DNA of 64,000 nt from Thiothrix sp. (GCA_038141665.1 JAYQIN010000002.1:765189-829188), one strand, 5' to 3'. Shown: positions 8,244 to 53,990, numbered from the stretch's first letter. Numbers and translations are program-made. Notes: generated by a model not told the origin, from the letters alone.

Positions 8244-10634
8244 ATGAGTGAGAATTTAGTAATTGTTGAGTCCCCAGCAAAATCAAAAACTATAGAAAAA
8301 TACCTTGGTCAAAATTATCGTGTAATTTCTACTGTTGGTCATTTGAGAAATTTGCCATCTAAAGAAGGAATAGATGTTAAAAATAATTATCAAATGAATT
8401 ATGAGCTTATAGATAGAGATCATAACAAGCCTCAGCAAATTATAAACGACATCAAAAAAGCTTTAAAAAAAGCAAAAAAACTTTACTTAGCAACTGACCA
8501 AGATAGAGAAGGTGAAGTAATTGCTTGGCATTTAATTGACATATTAGAAAAAGAAAATTGTTTGTCTGGAGTTGAGATTGTAAGAATAGTTTTTAACGAA
8601 ATTACAAAAAAAGCTATATTGGAATCAATTGAAAATCCTAGACAACTTTCACATGATTTAATTAATGCTCAATTTGCACGAAGATCTATTGATTATTTAT
8701 TTGGCATGGGTATATCTCCATTACTTTGGGGTATTGGTATAAGAAAAGGATCTGCTGGCAGAGTTCAGAGTCCTGCACTGAAAATGATTGTTGAGAGAGA
8801 AGAATCTATTAGGAAATTTATTCCAAAAGAATATTGGACGTTAAATGCAATTTTTTTGAAAGACGATAAGCCATTCGATAGTTTTTTGCATATTAATAAT
8901 AGTAAAAGATTGTCAAAATTTGATATAGATAATGAAAATTATGCTAACAAAATCAAAGAAGAGATATTGAGCTCTTCAGCTAAGGGTTTTGAAGTATTAA
9001 AAGTAACAAAAAAAGAGAGAAAAAGGCAGCCTGCGAAACCTTTTATAACATCAACACTTCAACAAGAAGCATCTAGAAAGCTAAGATTTGCCGCCAGAAG
9101 AACAATGGGAATAGCACAAGAATTATACACAGGTATCGATCTTGGTGATGGGCCTGTTGGATTAATAACTTACATGAGAACCGATTCAATTAATTTAGCA
9201 AAAGAAGCAACAGATGAGATGAGAGAAATTATTCCTAAGTTATTTGGCAAAGATGCATTACCAGATGATGTTAGAGAGTATACAAATACATCAAAAAACG
9301 CTCAAGAAGCTCATGAAGCCATAAGGCCAACATCATTGTCAAGAACACCAGAGGATGTAAAAAAATATTTGAATAAGGATCAGCTTGATTTATACACTTT
9401 GATATGGAAAAGAACCATTGCCTCACAAATGAATGATGCTATTTTGGACTCAGTCTCAGTAGATTTAGGGACAAGTGATAAAACTTTCAGAGCAACTGGT
9501 CAATCAATAAAATATCCGGGTTTTATGCAGGTTTATCTAGAAGGTACCGATGAAGAAGACTTAGAAGCAGAGTCTAAAATATTACCAAATATGCAGGAAG
9601 GCGACAAAGTGCAACTAGAAAAATTAGATGCTATTCAACATTTTACTCAGCCACCAGGAAGATATACAGAAGCTAGTTTAATAAAAAATTTAGAAAAAGA
9701 GGGAATTGGCAGACCTTCAACATATGCAGCTATTATCGAAACTCTTAGATTTAAGGAATATGTCGAAATTGAAAATAGAACTTTAACACCAACAGGTAAA
9801 GGAGCTTCCGCATGTGCTTTCTTAGACAAAAATTTTAATGATTTTATTAAGTATAATTATACGGCAGAGCTTGAGGAAACATTAGATAAAATTGCAAGAG
9901 GAGAAGTTGAATGGATACCTACAACTGATTCTTTCTATAAGTATCTGACAAAAATGGTAAAAGAGACTGAAAAATTATCTCCAGAGGAAAGAAAGCAGGA
10001 GAGAGTTTTAGGTGTAGATCCGAAAAGTGGAAGAACCGTTAGTGTAAGACACGGCCCTTTTGGCCCACATGCAATGATTGGTACAAAAGATGATCCAAAA
10101 GAAATTGGAAAACCAAAATCTGCTTCTTTAAAAAAAGGGCAAGATATTTTATCTATAACTTTAGAAGAAGCTTTAGATCTCTTTGTACTTCCAAGATTAT
10201 TGGGTGAAACTCCAGATGGCGAACATATAACTGCATGCCTCGGAAGGTTTGGGCCATATTTAAATTACGGAGAAAAGAAAAATTTATCATTAAAAGGTTT
10301 GGAAGAAAAAGGCCAAGAACCATATGATCCATACACCATTACTTTTGAACAAGCTTTGCCGTTAGTAGAACAGAAAAAAATTATTGAAGCTAATAAGGTA
10401 ATTCAAGACTTTGAGGAAAAAGGTATTCAAGTACTGAACGGAAGATGGGGTCCATATGTTACAGATGGAAGCAAAAATGTTAAGGTCCCAAAAGATCAGG
10501 ATCCAAAAGATTTATCTTTAGCTGAGTGTGAAGAGATGATAGAGAACGCACCGGTTAGAAGAGGAAGATTTGGCGCAAAGAAAAAGGTAGTAGCAAAGAA
10601 AAAAGTAGTAGCAAAAAAAGAAAAGCAAGTCTAA
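8244..10634 (+). CDS. topA: DNA topoisomerase I
   Basis: 796 aa: TOPRIM (LVIVESPAKSKTIEKYLG, DQDREGE), active-site region (ITYMRTDS). The C-terminus has cysteine-poor GPY-type repeats (RFGPYL, RWGPYV) and a Lys-rich tail. Confidence 0.95.
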   Translation: MSENLVIVESPAKSKTIEKYLGQNYRVISTVGHLRNLPSKEGIDVKNNYQMNYELIDRDHNKPQQIINDIKKALKKAKKLYLATDQDREGEVIAWHLIDILEKENCLSGVEIVRIVFNEITKKAILESIENPRQLSHDLINAQFARRSIDYLFGMGISPLLWGIGIRKGSAGRVQSPALKMIVEREESIRKFIPKEYWTLNAIFLKDDKPFDSFLHINNSKRLSKFDIDNENYANKIKEEILSSSAKGFEVLKVTKKERKRQPAKPFITSTLQQEASRKLRFAARRTMGIAQELYTGIDLGDGPVGLITYMRTDSINLAKEATDEMREIIPKLFGKDALPDDVREYTNTSKNAQEAHEAIRPTSLSRTPEDVKKYLNKDQLDLYTLIWKRTIASQMNDAILDSVSVDLGTSDKTFRATGQSIKYPGFMQVYLEGTDEEDLEAESKILPNMQEGDKVQLEKLDAIQHFTQPPGRYTEASLIKNLEKEGIGRPSTYAAIIETLRFKEYVEIENRTLTPTGKGASACAFLDKNFNDFIKYNYTAELEETLDKIARGEVEWIPTTDSFYKYLTKMVKETEKLSPEERKQERVLGVDPKSGRTVSVRHGPFGPHAMIGTKDDPKEIGKPKSASLKKGQDILSITLEEALDLFVLPRLLGETPDGEHITACLGRFGPYLNYGEKKNLSLKGLEEKGQEPYDPYTITFEQALPLVEQKKIIEANKVIQDFEEKGIQVLNGRWGPYVTDGSKNVKVPKDQDPKDLSLAECEEMIENAPVRRGRFGAKKKVVAKKKVVAKKEKQV

Positions 10635-32826: not shown

Positions 32827-35800
32827 TTATGCAGCAACACTATCTTTATTGAATAAATCTTCAATTTTGATGGCTTTAGGTTTGACTAATAAAAATTTAT
32901 TTATATAGCTATCAAAATTATCAAGTATAAATCTGCCCCATTCGCTATTTGTAAGATTCACATAATCTTCTATAGATTTTCTTAGGAAGGTAACTTGATG
33001 AAGATTCTCTTCTTTATTAATTTTTAAAGTTTCCACAAGCTCTGTATTATATTTATCTTTAAAGGTGTTGTTTTCGTCTAAAACAATTGCAAAACCACCT
33101 GACATTCCTGCTCCAAAGTTAACACCTGTTTCTCCAAGAACTATGACAGCACCATTGGTCATATATTCACATCCATGATCTCCAACCCCCTCAACTATTG
33201 CTGTGGCTCCTGAATTTCTTACAGCAAATCTTTCTCCTGCAATTCCAGCAGCATAAAGTTTTCCACCAGTTGCACCATACATGCATGTATTACCTATGAT
33301 AACTGAGTTCTTTGTCTCATAAGTTACATCTTTTGGGGGATATACAACAATCTGTCCCGCAGCCATTCCTTTGCCGACGTAGTCATTAGCATCCCCTTCT
33401 AAAGTTAAATTCAAGCCACCAGCATTCCAAACTCCAAAACTTTGTCCCGCTGTACCTTTAAAATGGATATTTATTGGGTTCTTAGACATTCCATAATTTC
33501 CGTGAAGGCTAGCTATGTAGCCTGATATGCTAGCTCCAACTGATCTATCAGTATTTTTAATAGAATAATTAAAGTTTCCACCAGATTTACTTTGAATTGC
33601 ATCTTTAGTCTCTTCATTAATTTTCTTAGATAGTTCTGCTTTGTCCCAAGGAATATTGCTTTCTAATTCACATGTATGAGAGATATTTTCATCAACATTG
33701 GCATCTGAAATAATTGGATCAATGATTAAATTTTTTAATTTACCATTTTCAAATTTTTTAACTTCAAGAATGTTTGTTTTTCCAATAATATCTGACAACT
33801 TTTTATATCCTAGATTTGCTAATAAGATTCTAGTTTCTTCAGCTATAAATCTAAAATAATTCATCACCATTTCATCTTTACCAATAAAATGATATTTTCT
33901 TAAAACTTGATTTTGAGTCGCAACACCAGTGGCGCAATTATTCAAATGACAAATTCTTAAATATTTGCAGCCCATTGCGATCATTGGTCCTGTTCCGAAA
34001 CCAAAACTTTCAGCTCCTAAAATTGCTGCTTTAACAACATCAATACCAGTTTTTAATCCACCATCTGCTTGTAATCTTACATTTCTTCTTAAGTTATTGG
34101 CTCTTAGTGTTTGGTGAGTTTCTGATAGACCCATTTCCCAAGGTCCGCCAGCATATTTAATACTGGACAGCGGACTCGCTGCAGTTCCTCCATCATAACC
34201 GGATATTGTAATAAAATCTGCATAAGCTTTTGCTACCCCAGCAGCTATAGTTCCAACCCCTGCTTCTGCAACTAATTTAACAGATACAAAAGCTTTTGGA
34301 TTGACCTGTTTTAGGTCAAAAATTAATTGCGCCAAATCTTCTATCGAATATATATCATGATGTGGAGGCGGTGAAATTAGTGTTATGCCAGGATTTGCAT
34401 ATCTTAAAGTAGCAATTAGCTTGTCAACTTTGTCACCGGGAAGCTGTCCTCCTTCACCTGGTTTTGCGCCTTGGGCAATTTTTATTTGAATAACTTCTGC
34501 ATTAACTAAGTAATGAGGAGTGACTCCAAATCTTCCTGATGCTACTTGTTTTATTTTTGAGTTTTTATCTGTGTTAAATCTTTTTTGATCTTCTCCACCC
34601 TCGCCTGAATTAGATCTTCCTCCCATTTTGTTCATAGCTTGAGCTAAAGTTTCGTGAGCATCAGGAGATAGAGCTCCTAAAGACATCCCGGCAGAGTCGA
34701 ATCTTAAAAGTATATTTTCTATTGGCTCGACATCATCTAGTGGAATTGGTTTTCTTGAGCTATTGAAGTCCAGCATGTCTCTAATCACCATTTTCTCTCT
34801 AGAGTGAACTATGTCGCTATATTTTTTATAATCTTCGTAGTCACCACTTTTTACAGCATCTTGAAGTGTTTTCACGACATCAGGATTATAGGCATGAAAC
34901 TCTTCACCATGAACGTATTTTAAAAGACCGCCTTGTTTAATATTCTTTCTTTCACTCCAAGTATTTTTGGCAAGTTTAATTTGATCAATTTGTAAATCAT
35001 TAAATGTTGTTCCTGATAATCTATTAGTAGTATCACAAAAACATAAATCAACTACTTCTTGATTTAATCCAACACATTCAAATAACTGTGATCCTCTATA
35101 ACTTGAAATAGTGGATATTCCCATCTTTGATAGAATTTTATAAAGGCCTTTGTTTATGCCCTGTCTATAATTTCTAGTTGCTTTGAAAAATTCTGAATTG
35201 TCATCAGATTTTTCAATAATCATACTATTTAAGGATTGATAGGCCAAATATGGATAAATTGCAGTTGCACCATATCCAATCAATGTGGCGCAATGATGAG
35301 AGTCTCGAGCTGTCGCTGTTTCTACAATAATGTTTACACTTGTTCTGAGACCACTTTTAATTAAAGCATGATGAACAGCGCCGGTAGCAAGGAGAGCATG
35401 AATTGGTAACTTTCCTTTTTTAATATTTTTATCACTTAAAATAATAAATACTTTATTATTTTTTGCGGCATCAATTGCTTTTTTTGTCAAATTTGTTATT
35501 GCTTTTTCAAGTTCTATTTTTTCATCAAAGTTTAGATCCAGAATTACAAATGTGAATTTCTTATTCTTTAGTTCCTGTAATTGTTTGAATTTTCTATATG
35601 ATAATATAGGAGATTCAATAGTCAGTCTGTGTGCATGTTTCGAGCCCTCCTCAAAGACGTTTAAATCTGGTCCGAGGTAAGTTTCTAAAGACATAACATT
35701 ACTTTCCCTTATTGGGTCTATAGGTGGATTTGTTACTTGAGCAAACTGTTGTCTGAAATAATCATATATTGACCTAATTTCATTTGATAAAACAGGAAAA

Positions 35801-37299
35801 GGAGTATCGTCACCCATAGAGCCAATAGCTTCCTGACTAAGATTTGAAAGTGGTTTCAATATTTGATCTTTCTCTTCATAAGTAACATTAAACATTTTTT
35901 CATATTGCTTAATTTTAGAATCATTAAAAAATTCTACTTCAGGGAATTTGTCGGGAATAATTTTTCGCATTGATTCTGCCCCAGTGTCCATCCATTCTTT
36001 GTAGGGGCATCTTTTTTTAAGAATATTGTCAATGTCATGTGAATATAAAATTTCTCCTTCTTCAGTATCTACAGCAATAATCTGACCAGGGCCAAGCTTT
36101 CCCTTTTCAATAATATCTCTTTCATCGTATTCATAGACTCCAATTTCAGAAGCTACAGTTATATGCCTATCATTAGTTATTACATACCTTGCAGGCCTTA
36201 AGCCGTTTCTATCAGTTACACAAGCTGCAAATCTCCCATCAGTTAAAACTATACCTGCTGGCCCATCCCATGACTCCATATGCTTTGCATTATATTCATA
36301 GAACGCTTTAAGATCTGAATCACTTTCAGGAATACTTTTCCATGCTGGCGGAATTAGAAGTTTAATAGCTTTAAATAAATTAATTCCTCCAACAACTAAA
36401 ACTTCAAGCATGTTATCGAGACTTTTTGAGTCTGACCCATTCATAGAAACAAGAGGTTTCAGATCAGCTAATTCTGGTATTTTAGAAGTTTTAAAAATGC
36501 TGGATCTTGCCTGAGACCAATTTCTATTGGCTCTTATAGTATTAATTTCTCCATTATGCGCTAACATTCTGAATGGCTGTGCAAGGCTCCATTGAGGCGT
36601 TGTATTTGTTGAAAATCTTTGATGAAAAACACATAGAGAAGTTTCAAGTTTTTTATTAGATAGGTCTAAATAAAATTTAGCAAGATGTTTTGGCATTATC
36701 ATGCCCTTATACAATATAACTTTAGAAGATAAACTTGTGATATAAAAAATATCATCATCTGTTTTAGAAATTAATATCTCTATTTTTCTTCTTATAATAA
36801 GTAATTTAGATTCAATATCTCTACTATTAATTTTCTCTGAGGGATTAATGAATGCTTGGCTAATATAAGGTAGAGTTTTTAATGCGTCCTCACCACAAAT
36901 CTTTTCATCGGTTGGAACATCTCTCCAGCCAGCTAAAATAAAATCATGTTCTTTTACCACTTCTTCAACAATTTTCATTGAAGATTTTCTTTTCTTTATA
37001 TCAGTATTTAGAAAAAACATTCCAATAGCAAAATTTTTTGCAACATTAATTTTTTGTTCATTTGCTATAGACCTGAAGAAGAATTCTGGAATTTTAAACA
37101 ATATTCCACAACCATCTCCAGAGGTTCCATCAGCTCCGACGGCGCCTCTATGAGCAAGCCTTTCGAGAGCAGTGATAGCTGTATCAATTAACCAGTGACT
37201 TGGTTTATCATCAATGTTTGAAATTAAACCAAATCCACAGCTGTCTTTTTCAAAGCTTTTATCATATAGACCAGTAATTTCTTTAGTTTTATCTACCAT
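32827..37299 (-). CDS. gltB: glutamate synthase (NADPH) large subunit
   Basis: 1490 aa, N-terminal Ntn Cys (DSCGFG), FMN and 3Fe-4S domains, C-terminal GXGXG beta-helix domain. Confidence 0.95.
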   Translation of the reverse strand: MVDKTKEITGLYDKSFEKDSCGFGLISNIDDKPSHWLIDTAITALERLAHRGAVGADGTSGDGCGILFKIPEFFFRSIANEQKINVAKNFAIGMFFLNTDIKKRKSSMKIVEEVVKEHDFILAGWRDVPTDEKICGEDALKTLPYISQAFINPSEKINSRDIESKLLIIRRKIEILISKTDDDIFYITSLSSKVILYKGMIMPKHLAKFYLDLSNKKLETSLCVFHQRFSTNTTPQWSLAQPFRMLAHNGEINTIRANRNWSQARSSIFKTSKIPELADLKPLVSMNGSDSKSLDNMLEVLVVGGINLFKAIKLLIPPAWKSIPESDSDLKAFYEYNAKHMESWDGPAGIVLTDGRFAACVTDRNGLRPARYVITNDRHITVASEIGVYEYDERDIIEKGKLGPGQIIAVDTEEGEILYSHDIDNILKKRCPYKEWMDTGAESMRKIIPDKFPEVEFFNDSKIKQYEKMFNVTYEEKDQILKPLSNLSQEAIGSMGDDTPFPVLSNEIRSIYDYFRQQFAQVTNPPIDPIRESNVMSLETYLGPDLNVFEEGSKHAHRLTIESPILSYRKFKQLQELKNKKFTFVILDLNFDEKIELEKAITNLTKKAIDAAKNNKVFIILSDKNIKKGKLPIHALLATGAVHHALIKSGLRTSVNIIVETATARDSHHCATLIGYGATAIYPYLAYQSLNSMIIEKSDDNSEFFKATRNYRQGINKGLYKILSKMGISTISSYRGSQLFECVGLNQEVVDLCFCDTTNRLSGTTFNDLQIDQIKLAKNTWSERKNIKQGGLLKYVHGEEFHAYNPDVVKTLQDAVKSGDYEDYKKYSDIVHSREKMVIRDMLDFNSSRKPIPLDDVEPIENILLRFDSAGMSLGALSPDAHETLAQAMNKMGGRSNSGEGGEDQKRFNTDKNSKIKQVASGRFGVTPHYLVNAEVIQIKIAQGAKPGEGGQLPGDKVDKLIATLRYANPGITLISPPPHHDIYSIEDLAQLIFDLKQVNPKAFVSVKLVAEAGVGTIAAGVAKAYADFITISGYDGGTAASPLSSIKYAGGPWEMGLSETHQTLRANNLRRNVRLQADGGLKTGIDVVKAAILGAESFGFGTGPMIAMGCKYLRICHLNNCATGVATQNQVLRKYHFIGKDEMVMNYFRFIAEETRILLANLGYKKLSDIIGKTNILEVKKFENGKLKNLIIDPIISDANVDENISHTCELESNIPWDKAELSKKINEETKDAIQSKSGGNFNYSIKNTDRSVGASISGYIASLHGNYGMSKNPINIHFKGTAGQSFGVWNAGGLNLTLEGDANDYVGKGMAAGQIVVYPPKDVTYETKNSVIIGNTCMYGATGGKLYAAGIAGERFAVRNSGATAIVEGVGDHGCEYMTNGAVIVLGETGVNFGAGMSGGFAIVLDENNTFKDKYNTELVETLKINKEENLHQVTFLRKSIEDYVNLTNSEWGRFILDNFDSYINKFLLVKPKAIKIEDLFNKDSVAA

Positions 37300-37328
37300 A
37301 TCTTAATAAGTCCAGTTAAATGAGCTTA

Positions 37329-37420
37329 CCAGAGTTTGATGATGTCTCACCAAACTCTAGATTTAAAGTTTGGTGCGTTCCTTCGGCTTTATGCCTACTT
37401 CCGTCCTACAAGGATGAACG
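37329..37420 (-). promoter_or_regulatory. glutamine-I (glnA RNA motif)-like riboswitch aptamer plus expression platform in the gltB leader
   Basis: The minus-strand RNA is CGUUCAUCCUUGUAGGACGGAAGUAGGCAUAAAGCCGAAGGAACGCACC (37420 to 37372). It has P1 CGUUC/GAACG, two hairpins and the conserved GGACGGAAGUAGG and GAAGGAACGC strings. It is followed by three mutually exclusive pairing segments. A paralog lies upstream of gltD. Confidence 0.7.
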
Positions 37421-37429
37421 TACATTTAT

Positions 37430-37458
37430 ATTATATGGCTAGGAGCTTATTCGTTCAA
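37430..37458 (-). promoter_or_regulatory. sigma-70 promoter of gltB leader
   Basis: Minus strand TTGAAC (37458-37453), 17-nt spacer, TATAAT (37435-37430), 9 nt before the aptamer P1. Confidence 0.65.
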
Positions 37459-37506
37459 TACATATTAGATATTAATATGTTGAATAAAATCTATATGTTA
37501 AAACAT

Positions 37507-38649
37507 CTAATTAGTCAGCTTTTTATGTTCTTGTTGTGCAAATCTATCTGTCATACCTGCAATATAGTCACATATAACTCTTTCTTTAAAGCCAGAATTA
37601 ATTTTGTTTAGATTGTAGTTATAGAAATCTTTTGGCAGTAAAGTTATGTCGTTGCTATAGGCTGAAAAAAGATCTTTAATGATCGTATTAGCCTCTTCTG
37701 TCATTTTTACAACATCTGGATGTTTATAGAGATTTGCATAAAGAAACCTTTTTAATTTTATGTTCATTTCTTTAACTTCCTTTGAAAAACTTACAATCAA
37801 TTCACTGTGATTTCTAACGTCTTCATATTTTTTTATTAAGCCATTTTCAATATTTGTTTTTGTATTATTTATTAAATCAGTTACTAGTAAATTTATAATT
37901 AATCTAACTGTTTCATTTACAATTTTAGAACCAGAGAGTTTAGGGAATTTGTTTAAAACTAATCTCATTTGATTATAAAATAAAGGTATATCTTCAAGCT
38001 GTTCTATGAAAATTTTTTTTGCCTTTATTCCATCTTGTATATCATGATTGTTGTATGCTATTTCATCACATACATTTGTTAGTTGAGCTTCAAGAGAGGC
38101 TTGTTTTTTTTTAAGAAATCTTTTTCCGACATCGCCAATCTTCTGCGCTCTAGTAAGAGAGCACTTTTTAAGTAAGCCTTCTCTAGTTTCAAAGCATAGA
38201 TTTAAGCCAGGAAAATTAGCGTATCTATTTTCCAGTTTATCAATAATCCTTAAAGATTGAATATTATGTTCGAACCCACCATAATCTTTCATACAAATAT
38301 TTAGAATATCTTGTCCTGCATGACCAAACGGAGTATGACCAAGATCGTGTGCTAATGATATGGCTTCTGTTAAATCTTCATTAATTCTTAAAGCTCTAGA
38401 AGCAGCTCTAGCTATTTGAGCAACCTCTATTGTATGAGTTAATCTTGTCCTATACATGTCTCCTTCATGATTAACAAAAACTTGAGTTTTATATTCTAAC
38501 CTTCTAAATGCAGTTGAATGTATGATTCTTTCTCGGTCCCTCTGGAATTCTGATCTGTATTTGGGATTTTCTTCCGGATACTTTCTTCCAATAGTATCAC
38601 TTGATTTTAGTGCATATGGAGCTAGGTTATATTCAGAATCATTTGACAT
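37507..38649 (-). CDS. dgt: dGTPase-like triphosphohydrolase (HD domain)
   Basis: 380 aa, FQRDRERIIHSTAFRRLEYKTQV, HD motif LAHDLGHTPFGH. Confidence 0.88.
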   Translation of the reverse strand: MSNDSEYNLAPYALKSSDTIGRKYPEENPKYRSEFQRDRERIIHSTAFRRLEYKTQVFVNHEGDMYRTRLTHTIEVAQIARAASRALRINEDLTEAISLAHDLGHTPFGHAGQDILNICMKDYGGFEHNIQSLRIIDKLENRYANFPGLNLCFETREGLLKKCSLTRAQKIGDVGKRFLKKKQASLEAQLTNVCDEIAYNNHDIQDGIKAKKIFIEQLEDIPLFYNQMRLVLNKFPKLSGSKIVNETVRLIINLLVTDLINNTKTNIENGLIKKYEDVRNHSELIVSFSKEVKEMNIKLKRFLYANLYKHPDVVKMTEEANTIIKDLFSAYSNDITLLPKDFYNYNLNKINSGFKERVICDYIAGMTDRFAQQEHKKLTN

Positions 38650-43801: not shown

Positions 43802-45214
<1,413 letters not shown>

Positions 45215-45224
45215 TTAAAACTTA

Positions 45225-45316
45225 CTAGAGTTTGATGTTATCTCACCAAACTCTAGATAAAAGTTTGGTGCGTTCCTTCAGCTTTTTGCCTACTTCCGTC
45301 CTTTAAAGGATGAACG
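45225..45316 (-). promoter_or_regulatory. second glutamine-I (glnA motif)-like riboswitch, in the gltD leader
   Basis: Minus-strand RNA CGUUCAUCCUUUAAAGGACGGAAGUAGGCAAAAAGCUGAAGGAACGCACC (45316 to 45267), then CACCAAACU / CUAGAGUUUGGUG / CAAACUCUAG segments. Differences from the gltB copy fall in loops or keep pairing. Confidence 0.7.
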
Positions 45317-45336
45317 TGTATTCTATTACAATATTA

Positions 45337-45365
45337 ATTATAGGACTAACAGGTTAAGCATTCAA
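45337..45365 (-). promoter_or_regulatory. sigma-70 promoter of gltD leader
   Basis: Minus strand TTGAAT (45365-45360), 17-nt spacer, TATAAT (45342-45337), about 20 nt before the aptamer. Confidence 0.65.
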
Positions 45366-45410: not shown

Positions 45411-45878
45411 TTAAGATAGCTTTTCTTTCACAAACTTACTGGCAAAGCCCATATCAGCGCGATTATTTGAACGTTTTTTGAGCTCACCCATTACTTGGCC
45501 TATTTGGCTCATCTCTTGAATGGATTTTTCTTTAATAATATCTTTAATCATTTGTTTCACTTCATCTTGACTCATATCTTCTGGCAGATATTCTTTAAAG
45601 ACAGATAACTCGAATTCTTCTTGCTCTGCAAGATCAGTTCTATTTGCTTCTTTATAGTGTGTGAGAGATTCTTTACTTTTTTTGGAGAGTTTTTTTAAAA
45701 TTTCAAAAATAATTTCATCAGTAAGATTTTCTCTTGTCTCAACTTCTTTGTCTAAAATTGCTGCAAGAATTAATTTAACAGCAGCCAATCTTTTTTTATC
45801 ACCGCTTTTCATCGAAGCTTTCATATCTTCGGTGATTTTATTTTTAAGAGGTGAATTAGTTTCTTGAGGGTTAGACAT
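45411..45878 (-). CDS. yqeY: GatB/YqeY domain protein
   Basis: 155 aa, LKNKITEDMKASMKSGDKKRL...; typical position downstream of rpsU. Confidence 0.8.
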   Translation of the reverse strand: MSNPQETNSPLKNKITEDMKASMKSGDKKRLAAVKLILAAILDKEVETRENLTDEIIFEILKKLSKKSKESLTHYKEANRTDLAEQEEFELSVFKEYLPEDMSQDEVKQMIKDIIKEKSIQEMSQIGQVMGELKKRSNNRADMGFASKFVKEKLS

Positions 45879-46096
45879 TAATAAAGTTTAATTCTTCTTC
45901 CAGTTGCAGTTCTATTAGTTCTTTTGTGAACTCTTTTTACAGCTGCAGCTGCTTTTCTTTTTCTAACAGAGGTTGGTTTCTCGTAAAATTCCCTTTTTCT
46001 AATTTCAGTTAAAACTCCAGCTTTTTCACATGCACGTCTAAATCTTCTGATGGCAATGTCAAATGGCTCGTTTTCTTTTACTTTAATACTTGGCAT
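45878..46096 (-). CDS. rpsU: 30S ribosomal protein S21
   Basis: 72 aa, [29 protein letters not shown]. Confidence 0.95.
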
Positions 46097-47881: not shown

Positions 47882-48421
47882 ATGTACGAAATCAAAAGTA
47901 AATCTGTAAAACGTGGTGGCAAAAGATCAGGCGCTGGACGCAAGAGTCTTTATGGCGCACCCACTAAGGCAATTCGTGTTCCAGAAAACATGGTTGCAGA
48001 AATAAAAGATTTTATAGAAGCACAAAATGCAGCTATTTATGAGCTGCCGTTATTCGCTTCCAAAGTAGCTGCCGGCTTCCCATCTCCTGCCGATGATTTC
48101 ATGGATACTAAACTTGACTTAAATACTCACTTAATAAAAACGCCGAGCGCCACTTTTTTTGTTCGTGTTTCTGGTGAGTCAATGATCAATGCAGGAATTC
48201 ATGACGGTGATTTGTTGGTAGTAGACCGAAGTCTTGAGCCGCAAGTTGGAAAAATTGTGATTGCTGCTATTCAACATGAACTTACCGTTAAACGTTATGT
48301 GAAAAAAGATGGTAAAGTTTACTTAGCTCCTGAAAACGACGCTTTTGAACCTATTCTAGTTAGTGAAGAAGATGAGGTTCATATTTGGGGTGTTGTTACC
48401 AATGTAGTGCATGCGGTTTAA
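47882..48421 (+). CDS. umuD: UmuD-like S24 self-cleaving peptidase with basic N-terminal extension
   Basis: 179 aa, cleavage-site context LFASKVAAGFPSPADD, Ser/Lys dyad (VSGESM, TVKRY). The first ~37 residues (KRGGKRSGAGRKSLYGAPTKAIRVPE) are extra relative to 139-aa E. coli UmuD. Confidence 0.85.
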   Translation: MYEIKSKSVKRGGKRSGAGRKSLYGAPTKAIRVPENMVAEIKDFIEAQNAAIYELPLFASKVAAGFPSPADDFMDTKLDLNTHLIKTPSATFFVRVSGESMINAGIHDGDLLVVDRSLEPQVGKIVIAAIQHELTVKRYVKKDGKVYLAPENDAFEPILVSEEDEVHIWGVVTNVVHAV

Positions 48422-48424
48422 CCT

Positions 48425-49702
48425 ATGTCTTCATTGCAGCCAGATCCAATTTACGCATTAGTTGATTGCAATAATTTTTACTGTTCCTGTGAGCGAGTTT
48501 TTAATCCTGCATTAGAAAAAAAACCGATGGCGGTTTTATCTAATAATGATGGATGTATTGTCGCTCGTTCTAACGAAATAAAAGCACTTGGTATTCCGAT
48601 GGGCGCGCCTATGTTTCAATATAAAAATCTACTGGAACAAAAAAAAGCAGTTATATTATCTTCCAATTATCAATTGTATGGGGATATGTCGCAGCGTGTC
48701 ATGACAACTTTACGCCAATTCACACCGGCTATGGAAGTGTATTCAATTGATGAGGCATTTTTACGCTTAGAAGAATTTAGAAGATTAGATTTAGATAAGT
48801 ATTCATTAGAGATTAGAAAAACAGTTAAGCAGTGGACTGGAATTCCGGTTTCAATTGGGATAGCCCCTAATAAAACGCTAGCTAAAGTCGCTAATCATAT
48901 GGCGAAAAAACATACTAATAGCGGAGTTTTTAATATTTGTAAAAAAGTAATACAAAATAAAGTGTTAGCTAACTTTCCAGTCGGTGATCTTTGGGGAGTT
49001 GGTCGCCAACTATCAAAAAGATTAAATGAAATGGGAATTAACACAGCATTAAAGTTAAGAGATGTTGATATTGTTTGGGCACGGAAGCATTTCACGGTAG
49101 TTGGCGAACGTATTGTAAGAGAGTTAAGAGGGGTAAATTGTTTAGAGTTAGAAGAAGTAATGGCAAAAAAAAATATTACCTCCTCTAAGTCTTTCGGAAA
49201 ACTAGTGACTGATAAAAAAGAATTAATGAGCGCAGTAGCTAACTATACAACACGCGCTTGTCACAAATTACGTTTACAAAAAAGTAAAGCGCAAGGTATT
49301 TATGTTTACTTAAGAACGAATCCATTTCGCCGTCAAGACCCACAGTACAACAATGGAATTACGTATGGATTTATGGAACCCAGTGATGACACAACCTATA
49401 TAATTCAAGCGGCACGCAAAAGTTTAGAACAAATTTATTCTAAAGGTTACAAGTATCATAAAGCAGGAATCATGCTACTTGATATAGTGCCTGCATCATA
49501 TAAACAAATGGAAATGTTTGATTCAGAAGAAACCAAAGCGCGCAGTGATTTGATGAAAACAATTGATACGATGAATACCACTATGGGACAAGATACGATT
49601 CGCTTTGCAGCACAAGGCATTGATCATCCATGGGCACGACGATGTGAAAATAGAACGCCAAGGTATACAACTAATTGGGATGAATTGGTAAAAGTAATAT
49701 GA
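48425..49702 (+). CDS. umuC: DNA polymerase V catalytic subunit UmuC (Y-family)
   Basis: 425 aa, YALVDCNNFYCSCERVF, SIDEAFL, GVGR motifs. Confidence 0.9.
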   Translation: MSSLQPDPIYALVDCNNFYCSCERVFNPALEKKPMAVLSNNDGCIVARSNEIKALGIPMGAPMFQYKNLLEQKKAVILSSNYQLYGDMSQRVMTTLRQFTPAMEVYSIDEAFLRLEEFRRLDLDKYSLEIRKTVKQWTGIPVSIGIAPNKTLAKVANHMAKKHTNSGVFNICKKVIQNKVLANFPVGDLWGVGRQLSKRLNEMGINTALKLRDVDIVWARKHFTVVGERIVRELRGVNCLELEEVMAKKNITSSKSFGKLVTDKKELMSAVANYTTRACHKLRLQKSKAQGIYVYLRTNPFRRQDPQYNNGITYGFMEPSDDTTYIIQAARKSLEQIYSKGYKYHKAGIMLLDIVPASYKQMEMFDSEETKARSDLMKTIDTMNTTMGQDTIRFAAQGIDHPWARRCENRTPRYTTNWDELVKVI

Positions 49703-51639: not shown

Positions 51640-52140
51640 ATGTCAACTTTTGTATATATGACCCGATGCGATGGATGCGGACACTGCGTAGATATTTGTC
51701 CTTCAGATATCATGCATATCGATCCAAAAATAAGACGTGCTGTAAACATTGAGCCGAACTTTTGTTGGGAATGTTATTCATGCGTAAAAGCTTGCCCACA
51801 AAATGCTATTGATGCTAGGGGTTATGCTGATTTTGCACCTATGGGACACAAAGTACGTGTTTTAAGAGAAGAAGAAAAAGGTACTATCTCATGGAGAATC
51901 ACATTTAGAAATGGAACCGAGAAAAACTTTGTATCACCTATTACTACAAAGCCTTGGGGAAAACATATTCATAAAGTTGCAGACGCTGAAGAGCCAGATC
52001 AAGCAGCTCATGAATCTCAGTTGCTTTTCAATGAGCCAGACTACTTGAAAATTGGTGATAATAGAGAAGCTGAATTAATTAATGAAGATGGGTTACCTTC
52101 ACGTGCTAAAGATACATTTAAGCAAGGAGTTTACTACTAA
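51640..52140 (+). CDS. aprB: adenylylsulfate reductase beta subunit
   Basis: 166 aa, two 4Fe-4S motifs (CDGCGHCVDICP, CWECYSCVKACP) and AprB C-terminal tail. Confidence 0.9.
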   Translation: MSTFVYMTRCDGCGHCVDICPSDIMHIDPKIRRAVNIEPNFCWECYSCVKACPQNAIDARGYADFAPMGHKVRVLREEEKGTISWRITFRNGTEKNFVSPITTKPWGKHIHKVADAEEPDQAAHESQLLFNEPDYLKIGDNREAELINEDGLPSRAKDTFKQGVYY

Positions 52141-53990
52141 TGGCAGATCATAAAACAGTTTACGAGGATTGCGATATTCTTATAGTTGGTGGTGGTATGG
52201 CTGGTACTGGAGCAACATTTGAATCCAGATATTGGGGCCGTGATATGAACATCGTGTGCGTGGAAAAAGCAAACATAGATAGAAGTGGCGCTGTTGCTCA
52301 GGGCCTTTATGCTATTAACTGCTACATGGGTACTCGTTGGAATGAAAACCAACCAGAAGATCATGTACGTTATGCTAGAAATGACTTGATGGGTATGGTC
52401 CGTGAAGACTTAGCATTAGATATGGCAAGACACGTTGATTCATGTGTGCACATGTTTGAAGAATGGGGCTTACCATTGATGAAGAATAAAGAAGGTCGTT
52501 ACCAAAGAGAAGGTAAATGGCAGATTATGATTCATGGTGAAAGTTACAAACCAATTGTGGCAGAAGCTGCAAAGAAATCTGCAAGTAAAATATATAACCG
52601 TGTAATGATTACTCATCTTTTAAAAGATGAAAGTAAAGATAATCGTTGTGGTGGTGCTGTTGGTTTTAATATGAGAACAGGTGATTTCCATGTGTTCCGT
52701 GCTAAAGCTACTATTATATGTGCAGGTGGTGCTTCACATATCTTTAAACCAAGAGCTGTTGGTGAAGGGATGGGAAGAACATGGTATGCACCTTGGAGTA
52801 ATGGTTCATGTTATGCATTACCAATCTTATTGGGCGCAAAAATGACTCAAATGGAAAACAGAATTGTTTTATGTAGATTTAAAGATGGTTATGGTCCAGT
52901 TGGAGCGTACTTCTTACATCTTAAAACTTATACTCAAAACACTTATGGTGAAGAGTATGAATCAAAATGGTATGACCAAACCAAAGAAATGGTTGGAGAG
53001 TACATTGATCATCACCCAACACCTACATGTTTAAGAAACCATGCTTTCTTGGAAGAAGTGAAAGCTGGAAGAGGTCCGATTCATATGGTAACTATGGAAG
53101 CTTTCCAAGATCCACATTTAGAAGTAATTGGATGGGAAAACTTTTTAGGAATGACTGTTGGTCAAGCCGTAGTATGGGCATCACAAGATATTGATCCTAA
53201 GTATCAAAATCCAGAATTAACTACTTCTGAGCCATATGTGATGGGCTCTCATGCTACATGTTCTGGAGCTTGGGTAAGTGGTCCATCTGATTTATCTCCT
53301 AAAGAATATTTCTGGGGATACAATAGAATGATGACTGTTGATGGTGTATTTGGTGCAGGTGATACAGTAGGTGGAACAGCGCACAAATTCTCATCAGGAT
53401 CTTTCACAGAAGGACGTTTAGCCGCTAAAGCTGCTGTTCAATACATAAAAGATATGGAAACAAAACCTAGCGTTACTGAGAAGCAAATAAATAACTTTAA
53501 AGAAGAGGTTTTCAAACCATTAGATAATTACACAATCGGTAGAAATGAAATTACCGCTGGAACAGTTTCACCAAGTTATATTTTGCCAATTCAAGGACTA
53601 CAAAGATTGCAAAAAATTATGGATGAGTACTGTGGTGGAATTACAGTTGGATATCAATGTAATGAAAATCAATTGAAGAAAGGTCTTAAGGATTTAGGTA
53701 TTCTTCAAGAAGATTTAGAAAACATTGGAGCAGAAGATCTTCATCAGTTAATGAGAGCATGGGAATTAAAACATCGTACACTGGTATCGCAATGTGTAAC
53801 AGAGCACACATTGTTTAGAGAGGAAACAAGATGGCCAGGCTATTATTATAGAAGTGACTTTAAAAAGTTAAATGATGATGATTGGCATTGCTTAACATTG
53901 TCTAGAAGAGATCCTGAGACAGGTAAATTTACCATGGAAAAAGCACCGCTTTATCATATAGTAGATGAGGAGCAAAAAAAGGCTGGTTAA
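52140..53990 (+). CDS. aprA: adenylylsulfate reductase alpha subunit
   Basis: 616 aa flavoprotein, DILIVGGGMAGTGA FAD motif, long AprA-specific conserved blocks (YARNDLMG, WQIMIHGESYK, RWPGYYYR). Confidence 0.92.
   Translation: MADHKTVYEDCDILIVGGGMAGTGATFESRYWGRDMNIVCVEKANIDRSGAVAQGLYAINCYMGTRWNENQPEDHVRYARNDLMGMVREDLALDMARHVDSCVHMFEEWGLPLMKNKEGRYQREGKWQIMIHGESYKPIVAEAAKKSASKIYNRVMITHLLKDESKDNRCGGAVGFNMRTGDFHVFRAKATIICAGGASHIFKPRAVGEGMGRTWYAPWSNGSCYALPILLGAKMTQMENRIVLCRFKDGYGPVGAYFLHLKTYTQNTYGEEYESKWYDQTKEMVGEYIDHHPTPTCLRNHAFLEEVKAGRGPIHMVTMEAFQDPHLEVIGWENFLGMTVGQAVVWASQDIDPKYQNPELTTSEPYVMGSHATCSGAWVSGPSDLSPKEYFWGYNRMMTVDGVFGAGDTVGGTAHKFSSGSFTEGRLAAKAAVQYIKDMETKPSVTEKQINNFKEEVFKPLDNYTIGRNEITAGTVSPSYILPIQGLQRLQKIMDEYCGGITVGYQCNENQLKKGLKDLGILQEDLENIGAEDLHQLMRAWELKHRTLVSQCVTEHTLFREETRWPGYYYRSDFKKLNDDDWHCLTLSRRDPETGKFTMEKAPLYHIVDEEQKKAG

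Follow-up and report, generated by a model that had tools for sequence, protein, structure and literature searches.

The leader of gltB, the gene for the large subunit of glutamate synthase (GOGAT), almost certainly carries a true glutamine-riboswitch aptamer in a 64,000-nt stretch of DNA from Thiothrix sp. (GCA_038141665.1, JAYQIN010000002.1:765189-829188), the whole of which we refer to as the window; binding of the ligand is predicted from homology. A second copy of the aptamer precedes gltD, the gene for the small subunit. Glutamine is a substrate for the products of both downstream genes, and production of both GOGAT subunits is probably set by direct RNA sensing of glutamine in this marine gammaproteobacterium. 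A first-pass annotation, made by a model from the sequence alone, had described the aptamer before gltB and overlooked the copy before gltD.

The whole window was scanned with the Rfam 15 covariance models at their gathering thresholds, which returned three matches, namely one tRNA and two copies of RF01739 (glutamine riboswitch, glnA leader). The gltB-leader aptamer (type 1, or glnA RNA) lies at 37372-37422 on the minus strand and covers the complete model (positions 1-53 of 53) with a score of 60.6 bits (E=6.7e-11) against a gathering score of 35, which bears out the earlier assignment to the glutamine-I class. In the alignment to RF01739 all strongly conserved positions are matched: CGUUCA, the P2 stem, ACGGAAGUA, the P3 stem and GAAGGAACGCA. 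A full-length score far above gathering, together with a complete set of core positions, indicates that the element is real and far beyond chance. The three stems P1, P2 and P3 and the junction strings ACGGAAGUA and GAAGGAACG, by which the three-stem junction class is recognized, are all found in this alignment. The minus-strand sequence from 37420 to 37372 reads exactly as quoted in the first-pass annotation, with P1 (CGUUC/GAACG) formed by 37416-37420 and 37376-37380, the two hairpins present as P2, UCC(U)-UGU-(A)GGA, and P3, GGC-AUAAA-GCC, and the junction strings ACGGAAGUA and GAAGGAACGC in place. P2 measures 4 bp here and 5 bp in the Rfam consensus. Directly 3' of P1 stands a C (37375) that would be, by homology, the counterpart of the linchpin C60 of the type 1 aptamer. 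No match to RF01704 (glutamine-II, Downstream-peptide) was obtained in the window at the gathering score; a canonical P1 is present instead of a pseudoknot, and the downstream genes encode proteins of 1490 and 463 aa.

We then asked how widely the element is conserved. Relatives were collected by a GltD-guided protein scan with one genome per GTDB species. Three close relatives (L001-L003) share 89-94% GltD identity with the window, the next relative (L004) 73% and all others 62-69%; an identical GltD is also found in GCA_038143975.1 and in Tara Oceans contigs. An Rfam scan of the three close relatives located the aptamer in all of their gltB leaders and, for gltD, in those of L001 and L003. 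L004 gave no RF01739 match; it has the same split gene order, with no leader space before gltD and a different gene immediately before gltB. The aptamer core was absent by regular expression from 76 of 76 more distant gammaproteobacterial loci, and this absence, together with that from L004, indicates that the element is restricted to a clade. As a separate observation, L004 holds between its dGTPase gene and gltB a 182-aa open reading frame (ORF; 9305-9853) that by eye resembles formaldehyde-activating enzyme, at the place taken by the riboswitch leader in the window, and gltB starts 7 nt later.

A metagenome scan that used the aptamer-platform junction (GAAGGAACGCACCAAAC) as its anchor returned 120 stretches. 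Thirty-eight of these contained a full aptamer, one was cut by a contig end and two had a phage-type platform; the remaining matches to the 17-mer (79/120), in unrelated and mostly high-GC contigs, were rejected as chance. Pooling the metagenomic leaders with those from the genomes gave 33 distinct leaders, all of which precede gltB (18) or gltD (15). The conservation that the first-pass annotation had named as a check thus extends from the three closest genomes to this whole set. Across it, the P2 stem UCCU/AGGA is retained around a loop of 2 to 15 nt, and the junctions are invariant; 18 leaders have G-U as the outer pair of P3, 8 have G-C, 5 have A-U and 2 have A·C. Stems that are kept, loops that vary and junctions that do not change are the pattern expected of a functional aptamer. 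At the sequence level, GAACG-C-A and CGGAAG, the counterparts of linchpin C60 and of junction residues G22/G23, occur in both window copies and in 33/33 leaders.

The second aptamer lies at 45267-45318 on the minus strand and again matches the full RF01739 model (1-53 of 53), with 62.6 bits. Both copies sit in the 5' untranslated region, on the coding strand, of nitrogen-metabolism genes that start 72-78 nt downstream. gltB (32827-37299, minus strand, 1490 aa) starts 72 nt downstream of the first aptamer and its identity as the glutamate synthase large subunit, as first annotated, is borne out by NF008730 at 2433 bits; gltD (43802-45193, minus strand, 463 aa) matches TIGR01318, the small subunit, at 717 bits. 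The two genes are not adjacent and belong to separate transcription units, with hemE, mrcA (on the opposite strand), aroK, aroB and a dGTPase gene in between. Only 2 nt separate gltB from dnaG, with rpoD next, and 2 nt separate gltD from hemE. Aligned with each other, the two leaders show 82% mean column identity over about 250 nt, from the promoter through the aptamer to the start codon, which identifies them as paralogous copies of one regulatory cassette.

A sigma-70-type promoter precedes each aptamer. For gltB it is TTGAAC (37458-37453), a 17-nt spacer and TATAAT (37435-37430), on the minus strand and with 10 of 12 positions in agreement with the consensus, exactly as had been annotated from the sequence; for gltD it is TTGAAT-17-TATAAT (45337-45365, minus strand), also with 10 of 12. 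The -10 element of the gltB leader ends 9 nt upstream of P1, and the window promoters lie 9-20 nt upstream of it. Chance matches to such a promoter are not rare in AT-rich DNA of this kind (3 found against 2.2 expected). The arrangement TTGAAY-17-TATAAT is present upstream of 33/33 distinct homologous leaders, with 7-12 nt between the -10 element and P1 in gltB leaders and 18-21 nt in gltD leaders, and is therefore conserved beyond what a chance AT-rich match would give. Transcription very probably starts just upstream of the aptamer, in agreement with the first-pass annotation.

Downstream of P1, a platform of four segments follows in the order S1 (CACCAAACUUUA), S2 (CUAGAGUUUGGUGA), S3 (AUCAUCAAACUCUGG...) and S4, the translation start region. 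It is common to both window leaders, to the three closest genomes and to the 33 distinct leaders. In the gltB leader (all minus strand), S1 (37364-37375) directly abuts P1 and provides the 5' strand of helix A, with the putative linchpin C as its first base; S2 (37347-37360) is a shared decoy strand that can form the 12-bp helix A with S1 or the 13-14-bp helix B with S3; S3 (AUCAUCAAACUCUGGUAAG, 37325-37343), a near-twin of S1, pairs with S2 or, in a sequestering hairpin, with S4; and S4 (CUUAUUAAGAUAUGGUAGAU, 37291-37310), which contains the AUG at 37299-37297, is predicted to pair with S3 in the state that contains helix A. The platform of the gltD leader occupies 45225-45270 on the minus strand (S1 45270-45260, S2 45256-45244, S3 45237-45225), helix A again opens with the C next to P1 (45270), and S4 is AAGAGU-AUG-A (45190-45199, minus strand; AUG 45193-45191). 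The first-pass annotation had noted three segments after P1 (CACCAAACU, CUAGAGUUUGGUG and CAAACUCUGG), which are present, and two mutually exclusive helices of 9 and 10 bp. The middle segment does pair either way, but the helices are longer: 12 bp for the first and 13-14 bp with a 4-nt loop for the second (CUAGAGUUUGGUGA/UCAUCAAACUCUGG), in which CAUC also pairs with GGUG. The third segment indeed pairs with the middle one, but its pairing with the start-codon region had been overlooked. Complementarity extends over 11-12 bp for helix A in 33/33 leaders, for which the search pattern had fixed the 5' strand and left the 3' strand free, and over 12-13 bp for helix B in 27-33 of the 33. As isolated hairpins, helix A has an energy of about -13.4 kcal/mol and helix B of about -15 to -17 kcal/mol.

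Several computations point to pairing between S3 and the start codon. For each full leader, helix A appears together with a hairpin between S3 and the start region in the minimum free energy (MFE) fold as well as in the centroid (z = -2.3 and -2.7). In the gltD leader, UCA-A-ACUCU of S3 pairs with AGAGU-A-UGA over the AUG (z = -3.7, in both the MFE and the centroid fold), and an inner stem, UAAGUUU/GGACUUA, would nucleate the hairpin. The architecture UCA.ACUC...GAGU.A.UGA recurs in about 27 of the 33 leaders with a mean z of -1.9 relative to shuffles; the sequence of the inner stem varies between leader subgroups while its pairing is kept, and one middle position of S3:S4 is C-G in 17 leaders, U-A in 5, U-G in 2 and mismatched in 9. 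Over the leaders as a group, S3 shows greater complementarity to the start that it precedes (-6.6 kcal/mol) than to the starts of 51 control genes of the window (-3.7 kcal/mol), with a median rank of 0.06, and the accessibility of the leaders' start regions is lower, at 0.34, than the 0.45 of 53 control genes (Mann-Whitney p = 4e-4). Blocking the first 3-9 nt of S1 raised the mean computed accessibility of the start from 0.34 to 0.48-0.52. Constrained folding gave -33.2 kcal/mol (gltB leader) and -34.5 kcal/mol (gltD leader) for helix A with the sequestering hairpin, -32.8 and -33.3 kcal/mol for helix B with the free S1 paired to S4, and -31.0 and -29.3 kcal/mol for helix B alone, so that the states are near-isoenergetic in both leaders. 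These models suggest that the AUG is covered whenever S1 is available, via S3 or by S1 directly, and exposed only when S1 is withheld, which argues for activation by glutamine.

With moderate confidence, and on the basis of these folding models, we favour translational control by sequestration of the start codon, with glutamine turning translation on. The proposed mechanism uses two near-identical anti strands, S1 (CACCAAACUUU) and S3 (CAUCAAACUCU), and two similar targets, the decoy S2 (AGAGUUUGGUG) and S4 (AGAGU-AUG-A or its gltB equivalent, containing the start codon). When glutamine is absent, S1:S2 (helix A) and S3:S4 would form, burying the AUG and keeping translation low. When glutamine is bound, the C that opens S1 would be drawn into the aptamer as the partner of G23 in the G23-C60 linchpin pair, and helix A would be weakened; S3 could then switch to its stronger partner S2 (helix B, 13-14 bp) and release the start codon. 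Glutamine, the substrate of GOGAT, would in this way turn on translation of both subunits in parallel. In published crystal and NMR work, binding of glutamine joins junction G23 in a long-range Watson-Crick pair with C60, the conserved C that follows P1, and opens a short helix joined to P1 (Ren et al., via PMC6212724; PMC11477058, a 2024 review), and C60 and its neighbours in Synechocystis are described as pairing with the ribosome-binding site, which glutamine binding would free (PMC6212724; PMC11477058). A Shine-Dalgarno-like 4-mer lies within 20 nt of the start in 12 of 53 long ORFs of the window and in none of the 33 leaders (0/33), and intergenic spacers across the window are very short; both features point to a streamlined genome with mostly Shine-Dalgarno-independent initiation. 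Where Shine-Dalgarno sequences are this rare, hiding the AUG itself would be a sensible alternative. The essential genes that follow gltB and gltD after 2 nt (dnaG-rpoD and hemE) would favour gene-specific translational control over termination.

A number of observations weigh against this interpretation. Withholding the linchpin C alone raises accessibility from 0.34 to just 0.38, so the model requires the bound aptamer to disable more of S1, and with 1-3 nt of S1 withheld the free S1 pairs with S4 in some folds, for example that of the gltD leader. RNAalifold on a MAFFT alignment of the region from S3 to the AUG returned no consensus structure; the variable spacer aligns poorly, so that the helix over the AUG gains no formal support from covariation. 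With the S3:S4 register fixed, there are several positions at which between a quarter and almost half of the leaders are mismatched, with a modest C-G/U-A exchange. The window gltB leader is itself among the weakest cases of AUG covering (duplex rank 0.75, z = -0.3), and its predicted pairing is irregular, with AUCAUCA opposite UGGU-GAU plus UCUGGUAAG opposite CUUAUU-AGA. As to covariation, for which the first-pass annotation had proposed to look, the changes in helices A and B are all one-sided (wobble), with zero double compensatory changes, and these helices are thus supported by conservation rather than covariation. Two further points, the contiguity of P1 and helix A, whose possible coaxial stacking would reverse the sign of the switch, and a terminator-like flag on helix B of the gltD leader, lead to alternative explanations.

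If stacking dominates, a P1 completed by the ligand would stack on helix A, which it adjoins with no linker, and stabilize it, leaving S3 free to bury the AUG; without glutamine, helix A would be weaker, and helix B would form and free the AUG. GOGAT would then be made during nitrogen limitation along with glutamine synthetase. The two states are only a few kcal/mol apart, and negative regulation has been deemed reasonable for metagenomic examples associated with glnA (Klahn et al., PMC6212724). However, the computed ground state already has helix A and the sequestering hairpin when no ligand is included, so that further stabilization by the ligand would change little; the published structures take the opening C of helix A into the aptamer and melt the helix attached to P1; and the homologous helix of viral versions overlaps or abuts a Shine-Dalgarno-like motif, implying an ON switch. 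We regard repression by glutamine at the level of translation as unlikely. Still less probable is transcription attenuation, in which helix B would be an intrinsic terminator and helix A the anti-terminator, glutamine terminating transcription before gltB and gltD through the melting of helix A. Helix B of the gltD leader (45256-45225, a 13-bp stem with the tail UAAGUUUUAA) was flagged as terminator-like by the consensus scan, and gltD leaders are slightly richer in U after the stem than background (3.8/8), but the U run begins 4 nt past the stem and is weak and displaced. In the gltB leader the scan of 37200-37600 found no terminator-like site and U content after helix B is at background (2.6/8 versus about 2.8), in keeping with the lack of a U-tract remarked on at first annotation; control other than by a terminator is the better reading of such helices. 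Attenuation would moreover cut off dnaG-rpoD and hemE, and it leaves the complementarity of S3 to the start codon unexplained.

The shortened P2 raises the question of whether the leader may resemble the aptamer and no longer bind glutamine, or bind another ligand or a protein, the platform helices serving mRNA stability. We consider this very improbable, as all highly conserved positions, including the ligand-pocket junctions and the linchpin C, are kept in 33/33 leaders of two genes, both of which use glutamine as substrate. Finally, the riboswitch could control a short upstream ORF beginning at a GUG in S2, whose translation would open the gltB start by coupling; the window gltB leader does hold a 15-codon frame from this GUG with a stop 3 nt before the AUG. 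Across the leaders, however, this ORF ranges from 2 to 25 codons (2 in the window gltD leader), its frame shifts between subgroups (VRHHQTL versus VKLSSNS) and its end lies at points between -44 and +26 with respect to the AUG. With neither length, frame nor end point conserved, we rejected this candidate as scarcely credible.

The aptamer resembles closely those of the known type 1 systems, the gifB leader of Synechocystis sp. PCC 6803 and the crystallized Synechococcus aptamer: the three stems, the junctions and the C after P1 are the same, both occur in the 5' untranslated region of nitrogen-assimilation genes, the switching helix starts at the C beside P1, and the proposed output, translational activation by glutamine, is shared. 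In contrast to these, the host here is an AT-rich marine gammaproteobacterium and not a cyanobacterium, and the targets are gltB and gltD rather than gifB/DUF4278, with two paralogous copies serving the split subunit genes. Whereas the helix next to P1 is proposed to pair directly with the ribosome-binding site in cyanobacteria, here a 12-bp decoy helix and a relay would cover the AUG. Glutamine-II RNAs (RF01704) share the ligand and related junction sequences, but replace P1 by a pseudoknot and precede short picocyanobacterial ORFs. Another cis-regulatory RNA situated immediately before gltD is the gltD motif (SRC-18-1), a riboswitch candidate of Selenomonadales/Veillonellales, for which glutamine is the suspected ligand and whose hairpin blocks the ribosome-binding site; it is unrelated in sequence and structure and occurs in Negativicutes.

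To our knowledge, functional study of glutamine riboswitches has been confined to cyanobacteria, where they control glutamine synthetase inactivating factors. The class has been described as occurring "exclusively" in cyanobacterial genomes, with the hosts of metagenomic cases taxonomically open (Klahn et al., 2018, PMC6212724). Glutamate synthase was listed among the genes beside glnA RNAs in marine data (Weinberg et al., 2010, PMC2864571), and the link of the class to glutamate synthase genes in metagenomes was reported again later (Brewer et al., 2021, PMC8632094); RF01739 matches in SAR86 genomes appeared in a 2025 long-read study (PMC12379486). In view of these reports the novelty first ascribed to the gltB element was rated too high: the RNA class and its association with glutamate synthase are already known, and no new ligand, fold or principle is involved. 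The metagenomic glnA RNAs, found upstream of glutamate synthase, glnA, amt and PII genes in marine data, are of the same class and have the same glutamate-synthase link, and the present leaders are very probably among the examples seen by Weinberg et al. and Brewer et al.; in those reports the organisms are unassigned and expression platforms are not described. What is new here is a concrete non-cyanobacterial host lineage, the paired leaders of the split gltB and gltD genes and the relay platform. One set of orphan metagenomic examples is thereby tied to a concrete organism and gene set, a streamlined heterotrophic or sulfur-oxidizing plankton lineage in which RNA would directly sense the substrate of GOGAT to control both of its subunits. 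The two competing strand pairs with a decoy would make a compact design, useful for understanding riboswitch output in Shine-Dalgarno-poor genomes.

Viral versions of the aptamer offer a simpler platform for comparison. The class has been reported as present in methylophages and pelagiphages and absent from OM43 hosts (2022 study). Among IMG/VR viral contigs (L081-L200), a general glutamine-aptamer pattern matched at least 120 stretches. Among the matches listed, the tails after P1 typically read CACC(U)...AGGAGGGUG-N-AUG, and in 61 of 110 distinct tails CAC[CU] after P1 is complementary to an [AG]GUG about 20 nt downstream, followed by AUG; in those 61, by a loose pattern with no shuffle control, the [AG]GUG overlaps or abuts a Shine-Dalgarno-like motif. 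Phage-borne aptamers (pelagiphage, methylophage and cyanophage contigs) thus have the same core as the cellular leaders, with a CACC tail in 41/125 among the matches listed, but mostly a simple CACC:GGUG platform at a Shine-Dalgarno-like motif, no S3/S4 relay and different downstream genes. Two metagenome contigs, L236 (minus strand, at about 448 of the reverse complement) and L291 (5650-5750), carry such a simple phage-type platform with a tail, CACCAAACUUUAAC, identical to S1 and followed by AAGGGAGGUGACAAUG; the stretch shared with S1 of the gltB and gltD leaders is CACCAAACUUUAA. The common tail CACCAAACUUUAAC hints at a shared origin of, or exchange between, the phage and cellular versions. 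Tandem aptamers occur on some viral contigs among the matches listed, for example L097, L109 and L114.

The window has a G+C content of about 31%. Two of the three close relatives are labelled "Gammaproteobacteria bacterium" and the third is a tropical-ocean single-cell genome, in line with the gammaproteobacterial host already suspected from the sequence. Genes for adenylyl-sulfate reductase, aprB and aprA, lie at 51640-53990 on the plus strand (TIGR02060 and TIGR02061, both above their cut-offs); they suggest a sulfur-oxidizing planktonic lineage rather than SAR86, which is disfavoured as a host on this ground. Drawing these strands together, we tentatively propose, with rather less than even confidence in the combination as a whole, that the window presents the first glutamine-riboswitch regulon anchored in a genome from outside the cyanobacteria, that of an uncultured marine gammaproteobacterium with AT-rich DNA and aprBA; that duplicated leaders coordinate its split GOGAT genes; that an undescribed four-segment decoy relay hides the start codon, as an adaptation to a Shine-Dalgarno-poor genome; and that the CACCAAACUUUAA tail hints at exchange with marine phages.

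The gene order between 29184 and 47179 suggests a rearrangement. In the classical arrangement at the start of the rpsU-dnaG-rpoD operon, tsaD is divergent from rpsU. The window has this divergence too, with tsaD facing away from rpsU (about 45878-46096, minus strand) and yqeY, but a block gltD-hemE-(mrcA)-aroK-aroB-dgt-gltB is inserted ahead of dnaG-rpoD. Set against what we take to be the usual gammaproteobacterial order, aroK-aroB-...-gltB-gltD-hemE (as in Pseudomonas), this block has the appearance of a circular permutation with its break between gltB and gltD, which would explain why gltD needs a leader copy of its own. Overlapping both the gltB leader and the end of the dGTPase gene is a 91-aa ORF with a TTG start (37336-37611, plus strand) that is most likely spurious. 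Farther along, at 47882-49702 on the plus strand, lies a gene of the impB/mucB/samB family (UmuC-like, Y-family polymerase), preceded by a 179-aa ORF that is possibly umuD-like.

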